Assembly (NCBI RefSeq): GCF_016903815.1
Contig: NZ_CP069973.1
Length of the DNA stretch: 64,000 nt
Origin: Escherichia coli
Lineage (GTDB): Bacteria > Pseudomonadota > Gammaproteobacteria > Enterobacterales > Enterobacteriaceae
Direction: 5' to 3' (one strand)
Below are positions 12,235-26,714 of the stretch, in pieces (within the stretch, counting starts at the first letter, position 1; each line of letters opens with the position of its first letter). A program made the position numbers and the translations under genes. A model generated the notes under the pieces. That model was given only the letters and a program-made list of their open reading frames with translations, was not told where the DNA came from and ran no database searches.

Positions 12235-12451
12235 GAAAAATCCCCCAGAGAATTGTCTGGGGACATTTTAGAATGGTTCAAAGGGGACATTACAGCTTGG
12301 TGTTAACAATAGCCTGCTTCTCCGTGCCTTTCGGCACGTAAGAGGCTAACCTACATGTGTCTAGCATGAAATTGGCCTCAGATTAATGTTAAGCGTCTTG
12401 CAGGACGCGTAATGTTAACTGGGGCTTTTCTCTATCTGCCTTTGGTGTTCG

Positions 12452-12481
12452 TGCCCGAGGCAGATAGCCTCAAGCACCCGC
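12452..12481 (+). repeat. Direct repeat copy A flanking the kwaAB-like cassette
   Basis: TGCCCGAGGCAGATAGCCTCAAGCACCCGC; 14-nt core CCTCAAGCACCCGC identical to copy B at 14487-14500; preceded by inverted repeat CTATCTGCC/GGCAGATAG. Confidence 0.6.
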
Positions 12482-12717: not shown

Positions 12718-13746
12718 TTACGCCTTAATAGGGTTAATCACATTTCCGCTATCCGTACCATAGTATTTTTTTGTAGTCATGCCTTGTTTATAATAATCAT
12801 TTAACAGTTTGAGAAAGTTTCTTCCTTGCCTCTCATCTTCTATGACTAATTTACCATGCTCATTGGTCTTAAACTCTTCGTTCTGAAACATTTTTAGCAC
12901 ATCATTCATAGCTTGAACATCATTCTTTTCCAGAACCGTATGGTTACCTTTCTCAGCGATATGAGTGAGAATTTTTCTCAGTGATGGCTTATGAAGAATA
13001 GCTTGTTCAATAACATCTAAACCTTCAATAAGATCAAGTTCTTTAATTGTATTTAATGTTTTTTGTGCAGCTTCTGTAAACTCAACCTCCAAGCCTACAA
13101 TAGCCTCAAAACTTTTCTTATGAAATACATAAAATTGATCTTTTATATAAATACAATCGATTTTGTCATCAAAATTGACTGCGCTGCCATCAAATGATCT
13201 TAACTCTTTATCTGTTTTATCAAACAAAGCGAATACGCGCTGAGTCATATTTTGTGGTTCATTTGTTGTGACTTTCCCCCTGCTGATTTTTCGGAAAGAA
13301 TAAGTGACGTCAGCCCCCTTTTGGACTTTAATACAATAGGCCCACAAATCATTCTGAACCTCAGCAAGAGAGGTAAGTACAACTGGTTTATCATTCTTTA
13401 TATCGTTATTAATAACTTTTGAAAACGATATCGCGTTATTCATAGCATAGGCATAAATTTTATTATCAATATCATCATCAATAACAGTATGCTTTTTCAT
13501 CACAATATCATCTTTCGAAGCATGAGAAATAATCTGGTTTGATAAAGTATACTTAAAAAATTTAGCAATATCTGGAGCGATTGGAGCTTTAATGATTTTA
13601 AAATCGAATTTATCAACAACTCTTGCGGTTCTACTCATACCCGCTTTAAGATGTCTAGTAATGAAATACAACGATATTTTCGCCGCATCATCATCCTTAA
13701 GTTGCTCAGCATACTCTAATAATTCTTCAAGCTTTAACATTTTCAT
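12718..13746 (-). CDS. Soluble 342-aa protein, candidate Kiwa KwaB-like (DUF4868-like) defense component
   Basis: Second gene of an AT-rich two-gene operon, 4-nt overlap with the upstream membrane-protein gene; family assignment by architecture only. Confidence 0.55.
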   Translation of the reverse strand: MKMLKLEELLEYAEQLKDDDAAKISLYFITRHLKAGMSRTARVVDKFDFKIIKAPIAPDIAKFFKYTLSNQIISHASKDDIVMKKHTVIDDDIDNKIYAYAMNNAISFSKVINNDIKNDKPVVLTSLAEVQNDLWAYCIKVQKGADVTYSFRKISRGKVTTNEPQNMTQRVFALFDKTDKELRSFDGSAVNFDDKIDCIYIKDQFYVFHKKSFEAIVGLEVEFTEAAQKTLNTIKELDLIEGLDVIEQAILHKPSLRKILTHIAEKGNHTVLEKNDVQAMNDVLKMFQNEEFKTNEHGKLVIEDERQGRNFLKLLNDYYKQGMTTKKYYGTDSGNVINPIKA

Positions 13747-14357
13747 TCCTTATGGGATTCAGCATAAAAAAGTTTTGGGCCCACGTCCTCAACATCAAGA
13801 AGATCATCTTCCTCCAAATACTTTGATTTAGTCAAAACCATACCAGTGCGTTTTTTGTCGCTTTCTAAATCCAAATATGTAACTTGATATAAAGTATAAT
13901 TAATACTTATTGTAGGATTTATAAGTATCATGCTTGAATTAATATATATTAAAGCCGTTACCGTTAACAATATTGCTATAGGTATAACATTAGTTAAAGT
14001 GGATAGATCCTGAAATACAAACGGAATTATATATGTAAAAAGATAGCTTATTGATTCATTGTTTTTATTTTCAATATCTATAACTCTTACAGTTCTACCA
14101 CTAGTGGCGCATCGACGTTTTATATTTTTTAAAAAAATTGTTAATCCTACAATACCAAATAATGATAATACACCAATGACACTGACCGCGCCAAAGTATT
14201 TAAAGAAAATAGTTAATGATTCAACACTTATACCTTTCCAATTTAAATAGCTTCTATAAGTATACAATTGCACAAAACACATGATAAAGAATAGGGGAAG
14301 GTATGACACTATAAATAGCGAAACTCTAGCACCTAAATGTAGTTTATTTACTCTCAT
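13743..14357 (-). CDS. Four-helix integral membrane protein, candidate Kiwa KwaA-like
   Basis: 204 aa with four hydrophobic segments (about residues 12-32, 55-76, 103-115, 125-140) and an acidic C-terminal tail; -10-like TAAAAT about 30 nt upstream. Confidence 0.55.
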   Translation of the reverse strand: MRVNKLHLGARVSLFIVSYLPLFFIMCFVQLYTYRSYLNWKGISVESLTIFFKYFGAVSVIGVLSLFGIVGLTIFLKNIKRRCATSGRTVRVIDIENKNNESISYLFTYIIPFVFQDLSTLTNVIPIAILLTVTALIYINSSMILINPTISINYTLYQVTYLDLESDKKRTGMVLTKSKYLEEDDLLDVEDVGPKLFYAESHKE

Positions 14358-14565: not shown

Positions 14566-15252
14566 TCACTCCTTCTCTTCTTTATCGTAGTGGAGTTGAC
14601 CAATTTTGATAAGAGGGCGTCCCTGAGATTTGCGGTGTAGATTGGTATCGCGCAGAGAATACACACAGCCACAATATTCCTGCTGATAGAATTTTTCGCG
14701 CTTGCTGATTTCAATCATGCGGGACGAGCCGCCCTGCTTGCGCCAGTTATAATCCCAGTACACCATGCCCGGATAATGCGCGACGGCTCGCCGCCCACAG
14801 TCGTTAACCTGCTGCATATTTTTCCAGCGTGAAATGCCCAGTGAACTGCTGATCACACTGAAACCATTTTCAGCAGCGTACAGCGCTGTCCGCTCAAAAC
14901 GCATGTCAAAACACATGGTACAACGGATCCCCCTCTCGGGCTCCCATTCCATTCCTTTGGCACGTTCAAACCAGTTGTCTGTGTCGTAATCAGCATCAAT
15001 AAATGGCACGCCGTGTTGTTCAGCAAAGCGAATATTCTCATCCTTACGAATTAAATACTCTTTCTGAGGATGAATGTTCGGGTTGTAGAAAAAGATGGTA
15101 TAGTCGATTCTCGAGGCCTGAAGTGCCTCCATCACTTCACCGGAACATGGAGCACAGCAAGAGTGCAGTAGTAGTTTGTTTGCCCCGTTTGGGAGCTCCA
15201 ATTTAGGCCGTTTGAAATCAGCAATAGTCATAAATATTTTTATTGGGGTCAT
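14566..15252 (-). CDS. QueH-like (DUF208) epoxyqueuosine-reductase homolog
   Basis: N-terminal [11 protein letters not shown] motif plus further conserved Cys (CTMC, CGC); alternative start at 15231. Confidence 0.65.
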
Positions 15253-16892: not shown

Positions 16893-17340
16893 TTGCTTTT
16901 TCTATAAGTTCGTCAGTTTCACGATCCACTACGGCAGGATCAGCAAAAAGCAGTCCGGACTCCACCACATCGCCATATTCTTTGTTTAACCCGGCGATCA
17001 TGCACGTGATGCTTTTTCCGTCAGTAATTTCACGATACAACCTGAAATCACTAATCCGGATAGCCTCCATAATCGCAGGCACTAGCGCCGTGAACTTTTC
17101 ACGCTTATCCCTGGTGTCGATAGCCTTCCAGCGTTCGAATATCTTCACTCGATTAACGCCAAGCGCTCGCTGATCAACCGCGCCACCTTCATCTGTGACA
17201 CGCTGAACATCGATGTTCGGGCGCTCTTTCAAAGCCCAGAATGCTTCAGTGATTAATATCGTCGCCTGCTCCTGTGTCATTCCTGGTCGACATATCCAGG
17301 CATCCAGAGCCTCACGAGCCTGTTCAGGAGTGATTTTCAT
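16819..17340 (-). CDS. Hypothetical early protein in the cII position (173 aa)
   Basis: ORF between the cro-like dicC and the O-like gene; function not recognisable. Confidence 0.45.
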   Translation of the reverse strand: MKITPEQAREALDAWICRPGMTQEQATILITEAFWALKERPNIDVQRVTDEGGAVDQRALGVNRVKIFERWKAIDTRDKREKFTALVPAIMEAIRISDFRLYREITDGKSITCMIAGLNKEYGDVVESGLLFADPAVVDRETDELIEKAIAFKLAYRQQYQQKAGWNYEPSFC

Positions 17341-17554
17341 TGTTCAACCGCCCCGCCCGCTTCGTCTTACGATATTCATCATAAACTTTGGGATCATACT
17401 GAAGCTCCCCGCCAGATGCCTCCTGTAGACGCATCGCGCGACCTTCAGGAACCAGTATCCCCCAAGCAGCAACACTTGCCAGCCTCACTCCTGCGGCATT
17501 GGCAAGCTTTGTTTTGCTGCCAAAAAAAGTAATTGCGTCAACTTTAAGCATCAA
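17324..17554 (-). CDS. dicC: Cro-like repressor DicC
   Basis: 76-aa ORF divergent from dicA; sequence recalled as DicC. Confidence 0.75.
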   Translation of the reverse strand: MMLKVDAITFFGSKTKLANAAGVRLASVAAWGILVPEGRAMRLQEASGGELQYDPKVYDEYRKTKRAGRLNNENHS

Positions 17555-17631
17555 AGCCCCCTCTTGTTAGACTTTTCTAACATTATTGTGCGCGGGATAC
17601 CTAAGTCAAGAAAAATTAGAATTACCTAACT

Positions 17632-18039
17632 ATGGATACAAGAACCCTGGGCCAGCGAGTTCTGGCGCGACGAAAAGAATTACGCTTAACACAACGAGAA
17701 GCCGCGCGCCTCGCTGGAGTTGCTCACGTCACAATTTCACAATGGGAAAGAGACGAAACCCAGCCAGTCGGAAAACGATTGTTTGCTTTAGCGGATGCTC
17801 TGAAGTGCTCACCTACATGGCTAATGTTTGGTGACGAAGACAAGGCACCAGTGCCTGCACAAGAACTTCATGTGGAAACAGAGCTAACTCCCAACCACAA
17901 AGAATTGATCGAATTATTCGATGCTCTTCCATCTTCCGAGCAGGAAGCCTTGCTGTCTGAAATGCGCGCAAGAGTAGAAAACTTCAACAAACTCTTCGAA
18001 GAAATGCTTAAAGCGCGTAAAAATAAATCAATAAAATAA
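17632..18039 (+). CDS. dicA: HTH-XRE repressor DicA
   Basis: 135 aa MDTRTLGQRVLARRKELRLTQREAARLAGVAHVTISQWERDETQP…. Confidence 0.9.
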   Translation: MDTRTLGQRVLARRKELRLTQREAARLAGVAHVTISQWERDETQPVGKRLFALADALKCSPTWLMFGDEDKAPVPAQELHVETELTPNHKELIELFDALPSSEQEALLSEMRARVENFNKLFEEMLKARKNKSIK

Positions 18040-18207
18040 CATTCTTTTCAAGTGATTAGTTGCGTCCACCCTTTTTGTTAGATCAATCTAACAAAAAACA
18101 CTTGCCTCTCATGTTAGGTTATTCTAAATTATTTTCCATCAAGACACCGCACGGTGTTCTCAGCAAACAGTTCCGCTACCCCGGCGTTAAGGGGAAATGA
18201 GGTCAGC

Positions 18208-18363
18208 ATGGATACTATCGATCTTGGCAACAACGAATCTCTGGTGTACGGCGTGTTTCCAAACCAGGACGGCACGTTCACCGCAATGACGTATACCAAA
18301 AGCAAAACGTTTAAAACCGAAAATGGTGCCCGTCGCTGGCTGGAAAGAAACTCAGGTGAGTGA
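18208..18363 (+). CDS. ydfA: YdfA-like small protein (51 aa)
   Basis: MDTIDLGNNESLVYGVFPNQDGTFTAMTYTKSKTFKTENGARRWLERNSGE within ORF 18154..18363. Confidence 0.75.
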   Translation: MDTIDLGNNESLVYGVFPNQDGTFTAMTYTKSKTFKTENGARRWLERNSGE

Positions 18364-18364
18364 T

Positions 18365-18940
18365 ATGGATTTCGACACAATCATGGAAAAGGCTTACGAA
18401 GAATACTTCGAAGGCCTTGCCGAAGGCGAAGAAGCTCTCAGCTTCAGTGAGTTTAAACAGGCACTCAGAATAAGAATGTGCTCTCACAATGACGCGGAGC
18501 ACAAATATGAGAAGCAAAATCAGACCGCAGAAAATTTTGTTCTGGAACCCGGAGAAACGCTTTTCAAAATTCCCGTTACGTGCCCCATTTGCGGTTTTAC
18601 ATCAGAAGAACTTGACGACTCCTGTAACAATCAGGAAACAACCAAGTATGTCGAAGATGATACCGAGTGCGCACGAAGAACGATTATATCCACGAGTCCA
18701 AACTCCAGGACCAATAAATCTCACTTTGAGAGGGTGATTAATCCACTCCCCCAAACCAATAAAAAAGATGCCGGAGGACAAAAAACCCAATGGAACAACG
18801 GGATATCTGTCAAAAAAAGACGTTCCATTAAAGACAAACAACGCAGCGCCAACAACTGTAAGCGCTTTATACCAGTAATCAATTTTCATGTTCTTAAGCG
18901 GATTTATTGGTGGTTGCGACATTGCTTAATGAATCCTTAA
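18365..18940 (+). CDS. YdfB/YdfC-region protein, continuous 191-aa ORF with CPICG motif
   Basis: ATG 2 nt after the ydfA stop; start of ORF 18323..18940 trimmed to MDFDTIMEKAYEEYFEG…. Confidence 0.45.
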   Translation: MDFDTIMEKAYEEYFEGLAEGEEALSFSEFKQALRIRMCSHNDAEHKYEKQNQTAENFVLEPGETLFKIPVTCPICGFTSEELDDSCNNQETTKYVEDDTECARRTIISTSPNSRTNKSHFERVINPLPQTNKKDAGGQKTQWNNGISVKKRRSIKDKQRSANNCKRFIPVINFHVLKRIYWWLRHCLMNP

Positions 18941-19199
18941 AACTGTGGTGATTTTAAGGATACCACCTCGCCTGACGTGGTTAAAAGCAGGCACACAACA
19001 CGAAAGCGCACGGCGAAGTTCGTCTCACTGTACGGTGTCGTTAAATTTAATTCGACCGTGCGCTTCCGGTTGTGGCAACCCGCGAAATGGCGCGGCGGTA
19101 AGTATGGCGGGGTTATTCCTTCCCCGTTGAGGACACCGAGTTGTCAGGTTGACCATACGCTTAAGTGACAACCCCGCTGCAACGCCCTCTGTTATCAAT

Positions 19200-19257
19200 T
19201 TTCTGGTGACGTTTGGCGGTATCAGTTTTACTCCGTGACTGCTCTGCCGCCGTTTTT
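19200..19257 (+). ncRNA. dicF: DicF small regulatory RNA
   Basis: TTTCTGGTGACGTTTGGCGGTATCAGTTTTACTCCGTGACTGCTCTGCCGCC followed by a T-tract, matching recalled DicF. Confidence 0.85.
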
Positions 19258-19426
19258 AAAGTGAATTTTGTGATGCGGTGAATGCGGCTAAGCGCACGCG
19301 GAACAGTTAAAACCAAAAACAGTGTTATGGGTGGATTCTCTGTATCCGGCGTTAATTGTTAACTGGTTAACGTCACCTGGAGGCACCAGGCACTGCATCA
19401 CAAAATTCATTGTTGAGGACGCGATA

Positions 19427-19615
19427 ATGAAAACGTTATTACCAAACGTTAATACGTCTGAAGGTTGTTTTGAAATTGGTGTCACTATCAGTAACCCTGT
19501 ATTTACTGAAGATGCCATTAACAAGAGAAAACAAGAACGGGAGCTATTAAATAAAATATGCATTGTTTCAATGCTGGCTCGTTTACGTCTGATGCCAAAA
19601 GGATGTGCACAATGA
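19427..19615 (+). CDS. dicB: Cell-division inhibitor DicB
   Basis: 62 aa MKTLLPNVNTSEGCFEIGVTISNPVFTEDAINKRKQERELLNKICIVSMLARLRLMPKGCAQ. Confidence 0.9.
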   Translation: MKTLLPNVNTSEGCFEIGVTISNPVFTEDAINKRKQERELLNKICIVSMLARLRLMPKGCAQ

Positions 19616-19803
19616 ATTCAGCATTTGCGCTTGTTCTGACAGTTTTTCTTGTTTCCGGAGAGCCAGTTGATATTGCAGTCAGTGTTCACAGGACAATGCA
19701 GGAGTGTATGACTGCAGCAACCGAACAGAAAATTCCCGGTAACTGTTACCCGGTCGATAAAGTTATTCACCAGTATAATATCGAAATCCCGGCAGGTCTT
19801 TAA
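19612..19803 (+). CDS. ydfD: YdfD small lysis-associated protein
   Basis: 63 aa MNSAFALVLTVFLVSGEPVDIAVSVHRTMQECM…; ATGA overlap with dicB. Confidence 0.8.
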   Translation: MNSAFALVLTVFLVSGEPVDIAVSVHRTMQECMTAATEQKIPGNCYPVDKVIHQYNIEIPAGL

Positions 19804-19896
19804 AACAGTTCCGTAATAAATATCCGGTTTCATTCTTATATGCCAGCAATGGCAGGGATTTGTTCATCCTTAAATCTGTCATGAGGTTAAAACAAA

Positions 19897-22368
19897 ATGA
19901 GTAAAGTCTTTATTTGCGCCGCTATTCCTGACGAACTGGCAACAAGGGAAGAAGGCGCTGTGGCTGTAGCCACAGCCATTGAAGCTGGCGACGAACGCCG
20001 TGCTCGAGCAAAATTTCACTGGCAATTCCTGGAACATTATCCGGCTGCTCAGGACTGCGTTTATAAATTTATTGTCTGCGAGGATAAACCTGGCATACCC
20101 CGCCCTGCCCTCGATTCATGGGATGCTGAATATATGCAGGAAAACCGCTGGGATGAGGAGTCTGCTTCTTTTGTCCCGGTTGAGACTGAATCCGATCCGA
20201 TGAACGTCACTTTTGACAAGCTGGCCCCTGAAGTACAGAACGCTGTCATGGTTAAGTTCGACACATGTGAAAACATCACCGTTGATATGGTTATTAGCGC
20301 ACAGGAATTGTTGCAGGAAGACATGGCAACATTCGACGGACATATCGTTGAAGCGTTGATGAAAATGCCAGAAGTTAACGCCATGTATCCGGAGCTTAAG
20401 TTGCACGCCATTGGGTGGGTTAAGCATAAATGTATTCCTGGTGCTAAATGGCCCGAAATTCAGGCAGAGATGCGCATCTGGAAAAAACGTCGCGAAGGTG
20501 AACGCAAGGAAACCGGAAAATACACGTCTGTTGTTGATCTCGCCCGCGCCAGAGCCAATCAACAGTACACTGAAAATTCAACAGGAAAAATCAGCCCGGT
20601 CATTGCTGCCATTCATCGCGAATACAAGCAGACATGGAAAACACTGGATGACGAACTGGCCTACGCTCTCTGGCCTGGTGATGTGGATGCCGGAAACATT
20701 GACGGCAGCATCCATCGCTGGGCAAAAAATGAAGTTATCGATAACGACCGCGAAGACTGGAAGCGTATCTCGGCATCAATGCGCAAACAGCCTGATGCCC
20801 TTCGCTACGACCGCCAAACTATTTTTGGCCTTGTCCGTGAACGTCCGATCGACATTCACAAAGATCCCGTAGCACTGAACAAATATATCTGCGAATACCT
20901 GACGACAAAGGGCGTGTTTGAGAATGAAGAAACAGACCTGGGCACTGTTGATGTTCTCCAGTCATCAGAAACACAAACTGATGCAGTGGAAACTGAGGTA
21001 TCTGATATCCCAAAAAATGAAACCGCGCCGGAAGCTGAACCATCTGTAGAGCGTGAGGGGCCGTTCTATTTCCTCTTCGCAGATAAGGACGGAGAAAAAT
21101 ACGGTCGCGCAAACAAACTTTCTGGTCTGGATAAGGCACTGGCTGCTGGCGCCACTGAAATCACAAAAGAAGAATATTTTGCCCGAAAAAATGGCACATA
21201 CACGGGCTTACCGCAAAATGTAGATACCGCTGAAGATTCAGAACAACCAGAGCCGATGAAAGTTACCGCTGACGAAGTAAACAACATTATGCAGGCAGCC
21301 AATATCATCCAGCCTGACGCCGATAAGTTGCTTGCTGCATCACGTGGTGAATTTGTTGAAGGGATTAGTGACCCGAATGATCCGAAATGGGTTAAGGGGA
21401 TCCAGACCCGCGATTCTGTGAACCAGAACCAGCATGAATCGGAACGGAACTACCAAAAAGCGGAACAAAACAGCCCAAATGCGTTACAAAACGAGCCAGA
21501 AACGAAACAGCCTGAATCAGTGGCGCAACAGGAAGTGGAAAAAGTCTGCACCGCCTGCGGTCAGACCGGCGGCGGCAACTGCCCTGATTGTGGCGCGGTA
21601 ATGGGCGACGCAACATACCAGGAAACATTCGATGAAGAGTATCAGGTTGAAGTTCAGGAAGATGATCCGGAGAAAATGGAAGGCGCTGAACATCCACACA
21701 AGGAGAACACTGGCGGCAATCAGCATCACGATAGCGATAATGAAACTGGCGAGACGGCAGATCACTCAATTAAGGTGAACGGTCATCACGAAATCACATC
21801 CACCAGCAGGACGTGTGACCATCTAATGATCGACCTTGAAACCATGGGAAAAAATCCTGATGCCCCGATCATCTCAATAGGTGCAATATTTTTCGATCCG
21901 CAAACCGGAGATATGGGACCGGAATTTAGTAAGACTATCGATCTGGAAACTGCTGGCGGAGTCATTGATCGGGACACCATTAAATGGTGGCTTAAGCAAT
22001 CACGCGAAGCGCAATCTGCCATTATGACCGATGAAATCCCGTTAGATGATGCACTGTTACAATTGCGGGAATTTATCGACGAAAACTCCGGTGAATTTTT
22101 TGTTCAGGTCTGGGGAAATGGAGCCAACTTCGACAACACGATTTTGCGCCGTTCATACGAACGGCAGGGGATCCCCTGCCCGTGGCGTTACTACAACGAT
22201 CGCGATGTACGCACAATCGTTGAGCTGGGGAAAGCCATAGACTTCGATGCCAGAACGGCTATTCAATTCGAAGGTGAGCGCCATAATGCACTTGATGACG
22301 CCCGTTACCAGGCAAAATACGTTTCAGTTATCTGGCAAAAACTGATCCCGAGTCAGGCTGATTCTTAA
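19897..22368 (+). CDS. ydfE: Large prophage protein (YdfE-like), 823 aa, with C-terminal DnaQ-like DEDDh 3'-5' exonuclease domain
   Basis: Exo motifs I (MIDLETMG), II ([12 protein letters not shown]) and III ([13 protein letters not shown]) in the last about 180 aa; acidic low-complexity linker; CxxC…CxxC around residues 550-560. Confidence 0.7.
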
Positions 22369-22440
22369 TGTTCAACTGTCGCCGGTTGTGACTGGTATTC
22401 TGCAACCGGCGCTCGTCTAATGTAAGAGATAAAGAAATCG

Positions 22441-22692
22441 ATGAGCGAAGTAATCATGATTGTCTCTCCCGGCAAATGGGTATCCGAAGAGCAGTTAATT
22501 GCGCTGAAAGGAATAAAAAAAGGTACGTTAAAAAAGGCCCGGGAAAAATCGTTTATGGAAGGAAGGGAATATAAGCATGTCGCTCATGACGGTATGCCAT
22601 GGGATAACAGTCCATGCTTTTACAACCTGGAAGAAATTGATCGCTGGATTGAGCGCCAGGCATCAGCAAGACCAAGACGTCATCTTACTTGA
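22441..22692 (+). CDS. Excisionase-like small DNA-binding protein
   Basis: 83-aa basic ORF directly upstream of the integrase region; family unverified. Confidence 0.45.
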   Translation: MSEVIMIVSPGKWVSEEQLIALKGIKKGTLKKAREKSFMEGREYKHVAHDGMPWDNSPCFYNLEEIDRWIERQASARPRRHLT

Positions 22693-22762
22693 CTAAAAGC
22701 CACACTAACGTAACCGGCTCATTTAAACCGTCTGGTCTGTTTCCTCCGGCTCTACAAAAATA

Positions 22763-23440
22763 ATGTCCATCATTTTTAATGGACACTATCGTATGAAACA
22801 CCGGACCTGGATCACTGAAGCTTTACGTCTTCACTTTGAAGAACATTTACCCCGGGTTGTGGCCGGGCGTCGCCTGGGTGTACCAAAATCAACAGTTTGT
22901 AGTATGTTCGTGCGCTTTCGGAGAGCTGGCCTTTCGTGGCCTTTGCCCGCAGGCATGTCGGAGCAGGAACTTGATGCCTGCCTTTACGGACAATTTTCCA
23001 CGGTACCAGTCGTACGTCCTGAAAGCACCGTTATATCCGAAGCCCCCGTGGTAAAAAAACGTCCCCGGCGGCCCAACTTCCCTTATGAGTTTAAAATCGC
23101 CTTAGTGGAGCAGTCACTGCAGCCCGGAGCCTGTGTGGCGCAGATCGCCCGGGAAAACGGAATCAACGATAACCTGCTCTTCAACTGGCGCCATCAATAC
23201 CGGAAAGGTGGCCTGCTGCCTTCCGGAAAAAATATGCCGGCACTGCTTCCCGTGACGTTAACGCCGGAGCCGGATAATAAAATCCCGGCCCCCGCACAGG
23301 AACCAGAGCAGATAAATACACCGTCCGACAGTCTGTGTTGTGAGCTGGTTCTGCCGGCCGGAACTCTCAGGCTTAAAGGTAAACTGACGCCGGCGTTATT
23401 ACAGACACTTATCCGCGAAATAAAAGGGAGCAGCCACTGA
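22763..23440 (+). CDS. tnpA: IS66-family accessory protein (orf1/TnpA, HTH)
   Basis: ORF with IS66 orf1-like segment (…FKIALVEQSLQPGACVAQIARENGINDNLLFNWRHQYRKG…); start uncertain (22763 or 22793). Confidence 0.65.
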   Translation: MSIIFNGHYRMKHRTWITEALRLHFEEHLPRVVAGRRLGVPKSTVCSMFVRFRRAGLSWPLPAGMSEQELDACLYGQFSTVPVVRPESTVISEAPVVKKRPRRPNFPYEFKIALVEQSLQPGACVAQIARENGINDNLLFNWRHQYRKGGLLPSGKNMPALLPVTLTPEPDNKIPAPAQEPEQINTPSDSLCCELVLPAGTLRLKGKLTPALLQTLIREIKGSSH

Positions 23441-23787
23441 TGATATCTCTCCCTGCAGGTTCGCGTATCTGGCTGGTTGCAGGTATCACCGATATGCGAA
23501 ATGGCTTTAACGGCCTGGCATCAAAAGTTCAGAACGTCCTGAAGGATGACCCGTTCTCCGGACACCTGTTCATCTTCCGCGGACGCCGGGGTGACCAGAT
23601 AAAAGTGTTGTGGGCTGACAGTGACGGACTGTGCCTCTTCACCAAACGCCTGGAGCGGGGCCGCTTCGTCTGGCCAGTCACCCGTGACGGCAAGGTGCAC
23701 CTTACTCCGGCTCAGTTATCCATGCTTCTTGAAGGTATCAACTGGAAGCACCCGAAACGAACGGAACGCGCTGGAATCCGCATATAA
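23440..23787 (+). CDS. tnpB: IS66-family TnpB (orf2)
   Basis: 115 aa MISLPAGSRIWLVAGITDMRNGFNGLA…; ATGA overlap with orf1. Confidence 0.85.
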   Translation: MISLPAGSRIWLVAGITDMRNGFNGLASKVQNVLKDDPFSGHLFIFRGRRGDQIKVLWADSDGLCLFTKRLERGRFVWPVTRDGKVHLTPAQLSMLLEGINWKHPKRTERAGIRI

Positions 23788-23806
23788 CCCGTTGTAAAGT
23801 GAGGAT

Positions 23807-25378
23807 ATGGACACCTCACTTGCTCATGAGAACGCCCGCCTGCGGGCACTGTTGCAGACGCAACAGGACACCATCCGCCAGATGGCTGAATACAACCGCC
23901 TGCTCTCACAGCGGGTGGCGGCTTATGCTTCCGAAATCAACCGGCTGAAGGCGCTGGTTGCGAAACTGCAACGTATGCAGTTCGGTAAAAGCTCAGAAAA
24001 ACTTCGTGCAAAAACCGAACGGCAGATACAGGAAGCACAGGAGCGAATCAGCGCACTTCAGGAAGAAATGGCGGAAACGCTGGGTGAGCAATATGACCCG
24101 GTACTGCCATCCGCCCTGCGCCAGTCTTCAGCCCGTAAACCGTTACCGGCCTCACTTCCCCGTGAAACCCGGGTTATCCGGCCGGAAGAGGAATGCTGTC
24201 CTGCCTGTGGTGGTGAACTCAGTTCTCTGGGATGTGATGTGTCAGAGCAACTGGAGCTTATCAGCAGCGCCTTTAAGGTTATCGAAACACAACGTCCGAA
24301 ACAGGCCTGTTGCCGGTGCGACCATATCGTGCAGGCACCAGTACCTTCAAAACCCATTGCACGCAGTTATGCCGGAGCGGGGCTTCTGGCCCATGTTGTC
24401 ACCGGGAAATATGCAGACCATCTGCCGTTATACCGCCAGTCAGAAATATACCGTCGTCAGGGAGTGGAGCTGAGCCGTGCCACACTGGGGCGCTGGACAG
24501 GTGCTGTTGCTGAACTGCTGGAGCCGCTGTATGACGTCCTGCGCCAGTATGTGCTGATGCCCGGTAAAGTCCATGCTGATGATATCCCCGTCCCGGTCCA
24601 GGAGCCGGGCAGCGGTAAAACCCGGACAGCCCGGCTGTGGGTCTACGTCCGTGATGACCGTAACGCCGGTTCACAGATGCCCCCGGCGGTCTGGTTCGCG
24701 TACAGTCCGGACCGGAAAGGTATCCATCCACAAAATCACCTGGCCGGTTACAGCGGTGTGCTTCAGGCCGATGCTTACGGTGGTTACCGGGCGTTATACG
24801 AATCCGGCAGAATAACGGAAGCCGCGTGTATGGCTCATGCCCGGAGAAAAATCCACGATGTGCATGCAAGAGCGCCCACCTACATCACCACGGAAGCCCT
24901 GCAGCGTATCGGTGAACTGTATGCCATCGAGGCAGAGGTCCGGGGCTGTTCAGCAGAACAGCGTCTGGCGGCAAGAAAAGCCAGAGCCGCGCCACTGATG
25001 CAGTCACTGTATGACTGGATACAGCAACAGATGAAAACACTGTCGCGTCACTCAGATACGGCAAAAGCGTTCGCATACCTGCTGAAACAGTGGGATGCAC
25101 TGAACGTGTACTGCAGTAATGGCTGGGTGGAAATCGACAACAACATCGCAGAGAACGCCTTACGGGGAGTGGCCGTAGGCCGGAAAAACTGGATGTTCGC
25201 GGGTTCCAACAGCGGTGGTGAACATGCGGCGGTGTTGTACTCGCTGATCGGCACATGCCGTCTGAACAATGTGGAGCCAGAAAAGTGGCTGCGTTACGTC
25301 ATTGAACATATCCAGGACTGGCCGGCAAACCGGGTACGCGATCTGTTGCCCTGGAAAGTTGATCTGAGCTCTCAGTAA
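23807..25378 (+). CDS. tnpC: IS66-family transposase TnpC (DDE)
   Basis: 523 aa with coiled-coil N-terminus, CxxC zinc motifs (CPACGG…CCRCDH) and DDE core. Confidence 0.9.
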
Positions 25379-25433
25379 ATATCAATACGGTTCTGACGAG
25401 TCGCTTACACACTAACTAATGAGAGAAGTTGAA

Positions 25434-26714
25434 ATGAAATATCCGACAGGCGTGGAAAACCATGGAGGGAAATTACGTATCTGGTTTGTTTATAAAGGCG
25501 TAAGAGTCAGGGAAAACCTGGGGGTTCCTGACACAGCAAAAAACAGGCGCGTTGCAGGTGAGCTACGCGCCTCTGTTTGTTACGCAATAAAAACTGGTGT
25601 TTTCGACTATGCAAAACAGTTTCCCTCCTCACGCAATCTGGAAAAATTTGGTGAGACCCGACAAGATTTAACCATAAAAGAACTGGCTGAAAAATTTCTG
25701 GCACTGAAAGAAACTGAAGTCGCAAAAACATCACTCAACACATACCGTGCCGTCATCAAAAATATCCTGAGCATAATCGGTGAAAAAAATCTTGCCTCAT
25801 CGATTAATAAAGAAAAATTACTGGAGGTTCGTAAAGAGCTACTGACTGGATACCAGATCCCCAAAAGTAACTATATTGTTACACAACCAGGGAGATCGGC
25901 TGTAACTGTAAATAATTACATGACAAATCTTAACGCCGTGTTCCAGTTTGGTGTTGATAACGGTTACCTGGTAGATAACCCGTTTAAGGGGATCTCGCCA
26001 TTAAAGGAATCAAGAACCATTCCGGATCCTCTTTCGCGGGAGGAATTCATCCGTCTTATCGATGCGTGCAGAAATCAGCAAGCCAAAAATTTATGGTGTG
26101 TTTCTGTTTATACTGGCGTTCGCCCTGGTGAGCTGTGTGCACTTGGATGGGAGGACATAGATCTGAAAAATGGAACAATGATGATCAGGAGAAATTTAGC
26201 AAAAGACCGTTTCACGGTACCAAAAACACAGGCGGGAACCAATCGGGTCATTCATCTTATTAAGCCAGCAATCGACGCTCTCCGGAGTCAGATGACATTA
26301 ACGAGACTGAGCAAAGAGCATATCATTGATGTTCACCTCAGAGAGTATGGCAGAACAGAAAAACATAAATGCACCTTTGTTTTTCAACCTGAAGTGTCAG
26401 CGAGAGTAAAAAATTATGGTGACCATTTTACCGTTGACTCAATAAGGCAGATGTGGGACGCAGCGATAAAACGTGCCGGACTCCGCCATCGAAAATCATA
26501 TCAGTCGAGACATACTTATGCCTGCTGGTCGCTGACAGCTGGTGCTAACCCGGCATTTATAGCAAACCAGATGGGCCATGCAGATGCGCAAATGGTATTT
26601 CAGGTATACGGAAAATGGATGTCTGAAAACAATAATGCACAGGTAGCTTTGTTAAATACACAGTTAAGCGAGTTTGCCCCAACCATGCCCCATAACGAAG
26701 CAATGAAAAATTAA
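25434..26714 (+). CDS. intQ: Phage tyrosine integrase
   Basis: Start taken at MKYPTGVENHGGKLRIWF… (ORF 25419..26714); C-terminal catalytic region with R…HxxR…Y (HTYACW…VYGKW). Confidence 0.85.
   Translation: MKYPTGVENHGGKLRIWFVYKGVRVRENLGVPDTAKNRRVAGELRASVCYAIKTGVFDYAKQFPSSRNLEKFGETRQDLTIKELAEKFLALKETEVAKTSLNTYRAVIKNILSIIGEKNLASSINKEKLLEVRKELLTGYQIPKSNYIVTQPGRSAVTVNNYMTNLNAVFQFGVDNGYLVDNPFKGISPLKESRTIPDPLSREEFIRLIDACRNQQAKNLWCVSVYTGVRPGELCALGWEDIDLKNGTMMIRRNLAKDRFTVPKTQAGTNRVIHLIKPAIDALRSQMTLTRLSKEHIIDVHLREYGRTEKHKCTFVFQPEVSARVKNYGDHFTVDSIRQMWDAAIKRAGLRHRKSYQSRHTYACWSLTAGANPAFIANQMGHADAQMVFQVYGKWMSENNNAQVALLNTQLSEFAPTMPHNEAMKN

Follow-up and report, generated by a model that had tools for sequence, protein, structure and literature searches.

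Intact dicF-dicB-ydfD genes and a conserved folded RNA upstream of DicF in a Qin-type prophage of Escherichia coli

In prophage Qin of E. coli K-12, the small RNA DicF is encoded in the dicBF operon (ydfABC-dicF-dicB-ydfDE), which is controlled by DicA and DicC. DicF comes from the transcript of the operon promoter dicBp; a 190-nt species owes its 5' end to RNase III and the 53-nt form to RNase E, and no internal dicF promoter was found (PMC10448788). The RNA represses ftsZ, xylR, pykA and manX, and DicB acts on FtsZ through MinC (PMC5069750; PMC9438474); YdfD is a lysis protein according to Masuda et al. 2016, as cited in PMC10448788. Repressors of the DicA/Gifsy type are short, lack the S24 peptidase and are controlled by an antirepressor, which in K-12 is Rem; the activity of dicBp rises 22-fold upon dicA deletion and 165-fold upon Rem expression (PMC10448788). 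The region upstream of DicF has been termed 'a long untranslated region' or the ydfC 3' UTR (PMC9438474; PMC5069750).

We analyzed a 64,000-nt stretch of an E. coli contig (NZ_CP069973.1), hereafter the window, in which a sequence-only reading had placed dicF, dicB and ydfD side by side. We consider 19200-19803 to be the stretch with dicF, dicB and ydfD in the early-left (PL-equivalent) operon of a lambdoid prophage of the Qin type, carried as silent host-toxic cargo, with a probability of roughly 0.93. Judged by their sequences, all three genes are intact and essentially the same as the K-12 copies studied by experiment. DicF, DicB and YdfD are textbook prophage cargo, so this finding is correct and already known, and nothing new is added by it. 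The ~120 nt preceding DicF, on the other hand, form a conserved folded RNA that does not seem to have been described, earlier literature on 'dicF-like' homology aside.

The dicF, dicB and ydfD genes and their prophage

In the Rfam scan, which had been set beforehand as the decisive test, DicF was detected once within the whole 64 kb (RF00039, 19201-19252 on the plus strand, full model 1-52), with a score of 72.5 bits (E 4.8e-14) against a gathering score of 48 bits. The experimentally studied 53-nt K-12 RNA, both target-pairing ends included, aligns to 19200-19252 with 52 of 53 nt identical, and the sole difference (C53G) is the final base of dicF, which lies outside the Rfam stem and adjoins the U-run. 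Rfam, the K-12 alignment and folding agree on dicF at 19200-19252 followed by the U5 run of an intrinsic terminator at 19253-19257. The terminator hairpin (19215-19251, -16.6 kcal/mol) is only modestly better than shuffled sequences (z -1.96). By its identity with K-12, this allele would be expected, once expressed, to repress ftsZ translation and to block division (PMC5069750).

Downstream of dicF, a spacer that is also the dicB 5' UTR (19258-19426, plus strand) is ~99% identical to K-12; a weak Rfam match to STnc100 (19250-19459) stays below threshold with 34.5 bits against 47. The dicB gene (19427-19615, plus strand) is an intact ORF of 62 aa, all 62 identical to K-12 DicB, with one synonymous base change in the gene and a Pfam DicB score (PF05358) of 136.8 bits against a cut-off of 27. 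The intact ydfD gene (19612-19803, plus strand) encodes 63 aa, of which 61 are identical to K-12, with the substitutions V6A and D55Y and a Pfam DUF1482 score (PF07358) of 90 bits against a cut-off of 25. As in K-12, the two genes overlap in the sequence ATGA, which holds the ydfD start and the dicB stop. Identity to K-12 is about 99% throughout 19035-19810, which excludes chance resemblance for the three genes. The sequence-only reading was therefore right in calling them intact and adjacent, and its limits are exact: 19200 is the first base of dicF and 19803 the last base of the ydfD stop codon. It had also regarded them as known biology, and a dicF-dicB-ydfD group in a Qin-type E. coli prophage is indeed ordinary.

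Of 5426 complete E. coli genomes, 3972 have the locus according to a 96-nt probe around dicF, and 843 records contain the exact 96-nt allele of the window. No annotated feature stands at dicF among the 30 RefSeq genome matches listed, and the annotation of K-12 MG1655 does include it. The value of the dicF finding lies mainly in annotation.

The prophage that carries the module is of the Qin type and sits at the rspB locus, where it ends like K-12 Qin. At least 25 complete E. coli genomes contain a 2.6-kb query (17300-19900) with 100% identity, and at least 80% of it is covered in 362 records. Strain 7/2 (NZ_CP023820.1) matches the window over 39 kb, save for one IS1 absent from the window, and the isolated Escherichia phage HannyBb (PP925841.1) contains the block 18124-22713 at 99.1% identity. 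Compared with K-12 the region is a mosaic, in which the 3' half of dicC is identical, the immunity region (~17450-18140) is diverged, ydfA and the first 34 codons of ydfB are again identical, ~18467-18955 (~490 bp) is unrelated to the K-12 ydfB 3' end and ydfC, and ~99% identity resumes at ~19035-19810. The next gene in the same operon direction (19897-22368, plus strand) encodes an intact 823-aa exonuclease (Pfam Rv2179c-like, 226 bits; PHROG 2082 exonuclease). It is the full-length form of K-12 ydfE, which is a truncated pseudogene beside IS2. Both xis and int are present in the window, with IS66 between them, and IS200, ISNCY and IS66 elements occur within the prophage. The same prophage also carries a complete Kiwa pair, a defence system.

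Proposed control of the operon and route of transcription into dicF

The immunity region contains a dicC-like gene for a Cro-type regulator (17324-17551, minus strand; Pfam P22_Cro, 45.8 bits), annotated as Cro/CI family in strain 7/2. Its product shares 65 of 76 aa with K-12 DicC, with an identical C-terminal half and a diverged N-terminus. The DicA-like repressor gene (17632-18039, plus strand) encodes 135 aa and is an allele different from that of K-12, with 75 of 135 residues (56%) identical to K-12 DicA. An HTH_3 domain covers residues 12-64 (54.2 bits), and no Peptidase_S24 domain was found by Pfam in the 135-aa protein. This fits the DicA/Gifsy type, that is, ~135 aa with an N-terminal HTH and without S24 peptidase, and hence without RecA-mediated cleavage.

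Between these two genes, a perfect palindrome (TGTTAGACTTTTCTAACA) forms an operator at 17565-17582; the K-12 operator at the homologous place is TGTTAGTCATAACTAACA. Two further operators, one perfect (18076-18093) and one with 2 mismatches (18112-18129), lie over the inferred dicB-operon promoter. Within the 64 kb, TGTTAG-N6-CTAACA occurs without mismatch at 17565 and 18076 alone. Three operators stand at the homologous places in K-12, and all three of the window share their half-sites with K-12 despite the diverged repressor. The promoter, recognized by alignment to K-12, would consist of TTGCCT (18102-18107) and TAAATT (18125-18130) separated by 17 nt, and it is overlapped by the third operator (18112). 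A consensus scan did not report this TTGCCT-17-TAAATT promoter at 18102-18130. The antirepressor gene rem is found at 8398-8649 on the minus strand, with 83 of 83 aa identical to K-12 Rem.

Rem was tested on K-12 DicA, and for the 56%-identical homologue of the window, repression and its relief by Rem are proposed by homology. The sequence-only reading had placed the module under DicA repression, which holds in kind, given the TGTTAG/CTAACA operators flanking the repressor gene, but not to the letter, since the repressor is a DicA homologue (75/135 identical) and not DicA itself. Following K-12 work, a DicA-type repressor on TGTTAG-N6-CTAACA operators would hold the operon promoter (~18102-18130) off, until repression lapses through the Rem antirepressor or spontaneously. 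The transcript would then pass ydfA, the ydfB remnant and a gene on the opposite strand before it reaches dicF.

The first of these, ydfA (18208-18363, plus strand), is identical to K-12 in 51/51 aa and 156/156 nt (Pfam DUF1391, 98.5 bits). Only the 5' part of ydfB follows (18365-18466, plus strand), in which the first 34 codons are as in K-12 before homology stops; the annotation of strain 7/2 treats it as an incomplete pseudogene. In place of ydfC stands a segment with two overlapping ORFs, a plus-strand read-through of ydfB (191 aa) and a minus-strand ORF of 106 aa (18602-18922), which is antisense to the operon and encodes a small membrane protein inside ~18467-18955. For the latter, 60 homologues were found with identities as low as 34%, and among them those of Yersinia, Herminiimonas and Reinekea are full-length (34-58% identity). 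Since three hydrophobic stretches and the motifs DYWYKA and G.GEW.NHP, which are invariant, are common to these homologues, it is a real gene. It is without annotation in strain 7/2, HannyBb annotates the overlapping plus-strand ORF instead, and its product has no match in Pfam, PHROG or PADLOC. In enterobacterial prophages the homologues always adjoin a CI-type repressor gene and point against the early-left genes, a position that appears typical of exclusion genes expressed in lysogens. As the gene at 18602-18922 is convergent to the operon, the operon transcript must cross it before dicF, and transcription into dicF could be reduced by it.

Past this gene, a long hairpin (18991-19076, plus strand; -38.3 kcal/mol, z -4.7) surrounds the inferred RNase III site. 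The 5' end of the 190-nt species, placed 137 nt upstream of dicF, falls at ~19063, in the 3' arm of the hairpin. An equivalent fold is predicted for K-12 (z -3.3), although the 5' arm there belongs to the diverged block, with G-U wobbles preserving the pairing; the recombination junction with K-12 sits in the hairpin loop. Both the hairpin and the whole 190-nt precursor region are conserved with K-12, and as K-12 forms the same predicted hairpin, the signals for DicF processing appear intact. A cut by RNase III in this hairpin (~19063) would give an RNA of ~190 nt made of a folded 5' domain and DicF, which RNase E would trim to the 53-nt DicF, with the 3' end provided by its own terminator. 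DicF would then pair with the ftsZ, manX, xylR and pykA mRNAs, and polymerases that pass its terminator would express DicB, acting with MinC against FtsZ rings, and the lysis protein YdfD.

The folded RNA element upstream of DicF

A sensitive search against phage genomes revealed that the untranslated stretch around dicF is modular, since 19069-19191 recurs without DicF in phage cdtI, Stx2c phages and phage P1, where part of it bears the annotation 'dicF-like region'. When the window, K-12, P1 and cdtI were aligned, the stretch proved strongly conserved, and some changes looked compensatory. The conserved structured element comprises ~115-120 nt (19067-19186, plus strand; 146.2 bits with our covariance model R1). 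The structure that we propose for it has the helices P1 (19069-19076 with 19176-19183), P2 (19080-19084 with 19091-19095), P3 (19108-19112 with 19122-19126) and P4 (19140-19146 with 19166-19172), plus a linker-loop helix (19102-19107 with 19153-19158). The R1 model finds one copy in the window and a single copy in strain 7/2. The 190-nt RNase III product corresponds to six nt and the element, joined to DicF by a linker of 16 nt. In the RNase III hairpin, the base of the 3' arm is at the same time the 5' strand of helix P1, and we infer that cleavage would free this strand to close the element.

From viral contigs we collected 107 true copies, 61 of them unique, by a 16-nt anchor. All copies were gathered via an exact 16-25-nt anchor in the P4 loop, so that diversity is limited and close relatives dominate. 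In the MAFFT alignment, pairing holds in 96.4% of the cells, compared with 30-62% for slid partners, and two-sided changes affect 7 pairs against 2.3 in shuffles (0/500). The covariance-model alignment, which leans towards the model's own structure, gives 96.6% of cells paired and two-sided changes in 9 of 31 pairs against 2.7 in shuffles (0/500). The linker-loop helix has just one two-sided change, in phage P1. RNAalifold, which does not consider pseudoknots, independently picked this helix with 3 additional pairs (GGU:GCY) and recovered P2 and P3 as well. It did not give P1 and P4 as drawn: part of the P1 5' strand was paired with the P4 3' strand, and alignment columns 80-82 were joined to 92-94 in a 3-bp hairpin incompatible with P4. 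An extension of the linker-loop helix by UAAG:CUUA is not supported by the cdtI-type copies. Covariation supports 19067-19186 as a conserved RNA of several helices, and as a structure it is well supported.

No Rfam family was found for the element, the scan of 17300-20000 at E<=1 returning only DicF and the sub-threshold STnc100 match. The same holds for the corresponding loci of P1, cdtI and P7, where no family covered the element and DicF itself gave no match at E<=1. When one genome per species was scanned, the genera with the element were Escherichia, Citrobacter and Trabulsiella alone. Further matches fell on five contigs from metagenome-assembled genomes labelled as unrelated taxa (four of 3-7 kb and one of 92 kb), which we take to be contamination.

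What follows the element varies. A terminator-like hairpin with a U-run lies 37-124 nt after it (median 69) in 118 of 121 copies. The DicF seed is present in 63 of the 121 and absent in 58, and the element occurs with four 3' units other than DicF. Considering only copies with enough downstream sequence, dicB follows in 54 of 58 seeded copies and in 9 of 53 unseeded ones. Its distance from the promoter differs as well: in P1 its start is ~30 nt past the -10 of Pban, a promoter controlled by C1, in cdtI it lies ~280 nt after a strong PL-like promoter with an operator palindrome, and in Qin-type prophages it is ~930 nt from the promoter.

Several known RNA classes were considered for this fold. 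A likeness of the four-helix element to tRNA or tmRNA was discarded, as ARAGORN found nothing. Helix P2 and the P4 loop were compared by eye with the nut sites (boxA/boxB) of lambda and P22, and this likeness was rejected because the positions that boxA would occupy are variable (CTTAAG versus CCTGAG) and because, to our knowledge, phage P1 has no N protein. A riboswitch-like alternative pairing between element and terminator was also dropped, as inspection by eye revealed no complementarity conserved across the different terminators. Membership in the put class of HK022 was rejected too: blastn-short and nhmmer returned only chance words of 11-12 nt, R1 has no match in HK022, and the element is single-copy.

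Alternative readings and comparison with known systems

The sequence-only reading had spoken of a full division-inhibition module. This applies to dicF, dicB and ydfD, with the intact exonuclease in addition, but not to the upstream operon, where ydfB is truncated or fused and ydfC replaced. In one alternative reading the module is a decaying, non-functional remnant, its genes still looking intact and its expression lost through upstream rearrangement and insertion sequences. In favor of this, besides the truncated ydfB, the replaced ydfC and the inserted opposing gene, the prophage contains IS200, ISNCY and IS66, with one additional IS1 in strain 7/2, and the consensus scan gave no promoter on the plus strand at 18140-19200. 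We nevertheless regard decay as very improbable, since the promoter region and operators are intact, dicF, dicB, ydfA and the processing hairpin are strongly conserved with K-12, and the exact 96-nt dicF allele is found in the 843 records mentioned above. The same arrangement is present at 99.1-99.7% identity in HannyBb, and because an isolated phage carries 18124-22713, it is better seen as a normal mobile phage module. That the module is instead kept as defence cargo, with protection from other phages and not division control as its main benefit for the host, seems unlikely to us, although it is compatible with the reading of a silent, host-toxic operon part, since it concerns selective value and not identity, and the sequence does not discriminate between the two. 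According to PMC6832061 (bioRxiv 10.1101/708461) and PMC10448788, DicB inhibits the ManYZ inner-membrane proteins, used by some phages for DNA entry, and DicF represses manX. The complete Kiwa pair and the repressor-adjacent membrane protein of this prophage point in the same direction. Against it, PADLOC has no model matching DicB or YdfD.

For the ~120 nt upstream of DicF (19067-19186), we tentatively propose, at somewhat less than even odds, an undescribed class of folded phage RNA, built of a closing stem, three hairpins and a linker-loop pairing, and not a mere precursor spacer. It would belong to lambdoid and P1-like phages of Enterobacteriaceae and sit in the leaders of repressor-controlled early operons, nearly always followed by an intrinsic terminator that is swapped between lineages; DicF would be one such 3' unit, and the 190-nt 'long DicF' the complete unit. 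The element may control terminator readthrough or the processing or stability of the sRNA. The roles we considered, partly by analogy, are a scaffold for sRNA processing or stability, a cis effect on terminator readthrough as suggested by put, and a protein-binding site. A narrower form, in which a larger conserved leader RNA (19067-19257) can bear various interchangeable 3' ends, DicF among them, and in which its folded 5' domain acts in cis on transcription, for example on terminator readthrough like HK022 put, is in our opinion rather improbable. It would agree with the four other 3' units and the 58 of 121 copies lacking the DicF seed, with the terminator-like hairpin and U-run within 37-124 nt in 118 of 121 copies, with the location of the element ~30 nt after the Pban -10 in P1 and ~280 nt after the PL-like promoter in cdtI, with the covariation for a defined fold, and with the 190-nt RNase III species being the element plus DicF. 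It is harder to reconcile with the ~930 nt that separate element and promoter in Qin-type prophages, with one copy per prophage where HK022 has one after each early promoter, with the lack of sequence similarity to put and of an R1 match in HK022, and with the failure to see an alternative element-terminator pairing by eye; a stabilizing or processing scaffold fits the data equally well. If the element is a functional RNA by itself, DicF would be one interchangeable 3' module of a wider family of phage leader RNAs, and the element would be a concrete candidate, open to testing, for the means by which lambdoid phages without N, and likewise the ban operon of P1, get past the terminator that heads their early operons.

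The likeness to putL and putR of HK022 is one of analogy only: in both cases a folded RNA comes after a repressor-controlled early promoter and before terminators, in phages without an obvious N (PMC9378689). The put RNAs, a class that promotes terminator readthrough in cis and needs no protein factor for it, have ~70 nt and two stems, with two copies per genome that each follow an early promoter, whereas the element has ~115 nt, four helices and a linker-loop pairing, and occurs once per prophage. Closer relatives are the leader of the P1 ban operon, with its 'dicF-like region' (AF234172, 68791-68892), and the PL leaders of cdtI and Stx2c phages. They have the structured element in common with the window (R1 87-141 bits), with compensatory changes in the helices and an intrinsic terminator right after it. 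They differ in lacking the DicF seed and in having another terminator hairpin, with no dicB and ydfD following, and their element is near the promoter, without preceding ORFs or an RNase III hairpin.

At the level of the operon, HannyBb corresponds from ydfA to xis (18124-22713, 99.1%), a block that takes in the replaced segment and the RNA element together with dicF, dicB, ydfD and the exonuclease gene. It has another repressor and immunity region, and its annotation lacks dicF and places hypothetical CDSs over the RNA element. The dicBF operon of K-12 Qin corresponds to the window in locus, gene order, operator half-sites and RNase III hairpin, but it has another immunity allele, complete ydfB and ydfC, and a ydfE truncated at IS2, where the window has IS66 between xis and int. 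The Qin-type prophage studied here keeps a more complete early-left arm than that of K-12.

Noncoding elements upstream and downstream of dicF

Directly upstream of DicF, a multi-helix conserved RNA element was found on the + strand (19067-19186), with covariation supporting its fold. It is common to the Pban leader of phage P1 and to the cdtI and Stx2c phage leaders, and an intrinsic terminator lies 3' of it in 118 of 121 copies. No Rfam family matched the element. Its 5' edge overlaps a long hairpin (18991-19076, +) containing the inferred RNase III site. The loop of this hairpin is where K-12-like DNA gives way to non-K-12 DNA, yet G-U wobbles keep the stem paired. In two viral-contig variants (L022 and L030) the hairpin was deleted via a repeated CGCGAAA, and the closing helix of the RNA element (helix P1) was lost with it. 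Between the hairpin and the start of an antisense gene we also observed a short noncoding module, GGTGATTTTAAGGATACCACC... (18957-19010, +), which is found alone in mEp460, in Cronobacter phiES15, and in Klebsiella and Salmonella phages.

The dicF-dicB spacer (19250-19459, +) matches Rfam STnc100 below threshold (34.5 bits vs 47). The same module is directly followed by terB in P7 (43 bits) and by tciA in phage P1 (L017, 2501-2616, and L015, 3842-3961), and may thus represent a conserved 5' UTR for genes of the division-inhibition or tellurite-resistance type.

Insertion elements and other cargo of the prophage

An IS66-family element with tnpA, tnpB and a transposase gene (22441-26714, +) separates the excisionase gene from an intact integrase gene. 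IS200 and ISNCY occur elsewhere in the prophage, and with these insertions its excision may still be blocked even though int and xis are intact. The same prophage carries a complete Kiwa anti-phage pair (12718-14357, -), composed of KwaB (12718-13740; 523.6 bits) and KwaA (13743-14357; 336.6 bits), where RefSeq names only a KwaB-like domain. A strong, unannotated Rfam sok match (12308-12479, -; 105.6 bits) has no intact ORF of hok size adjoining it, and is probably a truncated hok/sok locus; an ISNCY transposase remnant adjoins this match. Among the early-right genes, one annotated as epoxyqueuosine reductase QueH (14566-15231, -) is an unusual cargo for a lambdoid prophage.

Annotation gaps and comparison with K-12

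An unannotated gene for a small membrane protein of 106 aa lies antisense within the dicB operon (18602-18922, -). The protein has no match in Pfam, PHROG or PADLOC; with homologues extending to 34% identity in distant Proteobacteria, it belongs to a real family. In enterobacterial prophages, the homologous genes always adjoin a CI-type repressor. K-12 has ydfC at the corresponding position.

In the annotation of the isolated phage HannyBb (L003, 4506-4799), two hypothetical CDSs cover the RNA element and DicF, with dicB called as an extended 97-aa form. None of the 30 RefSeq E. coli genomes among the matches listed has dicF annotated under the match, unlike K-12 MG1655, where it is annotated.
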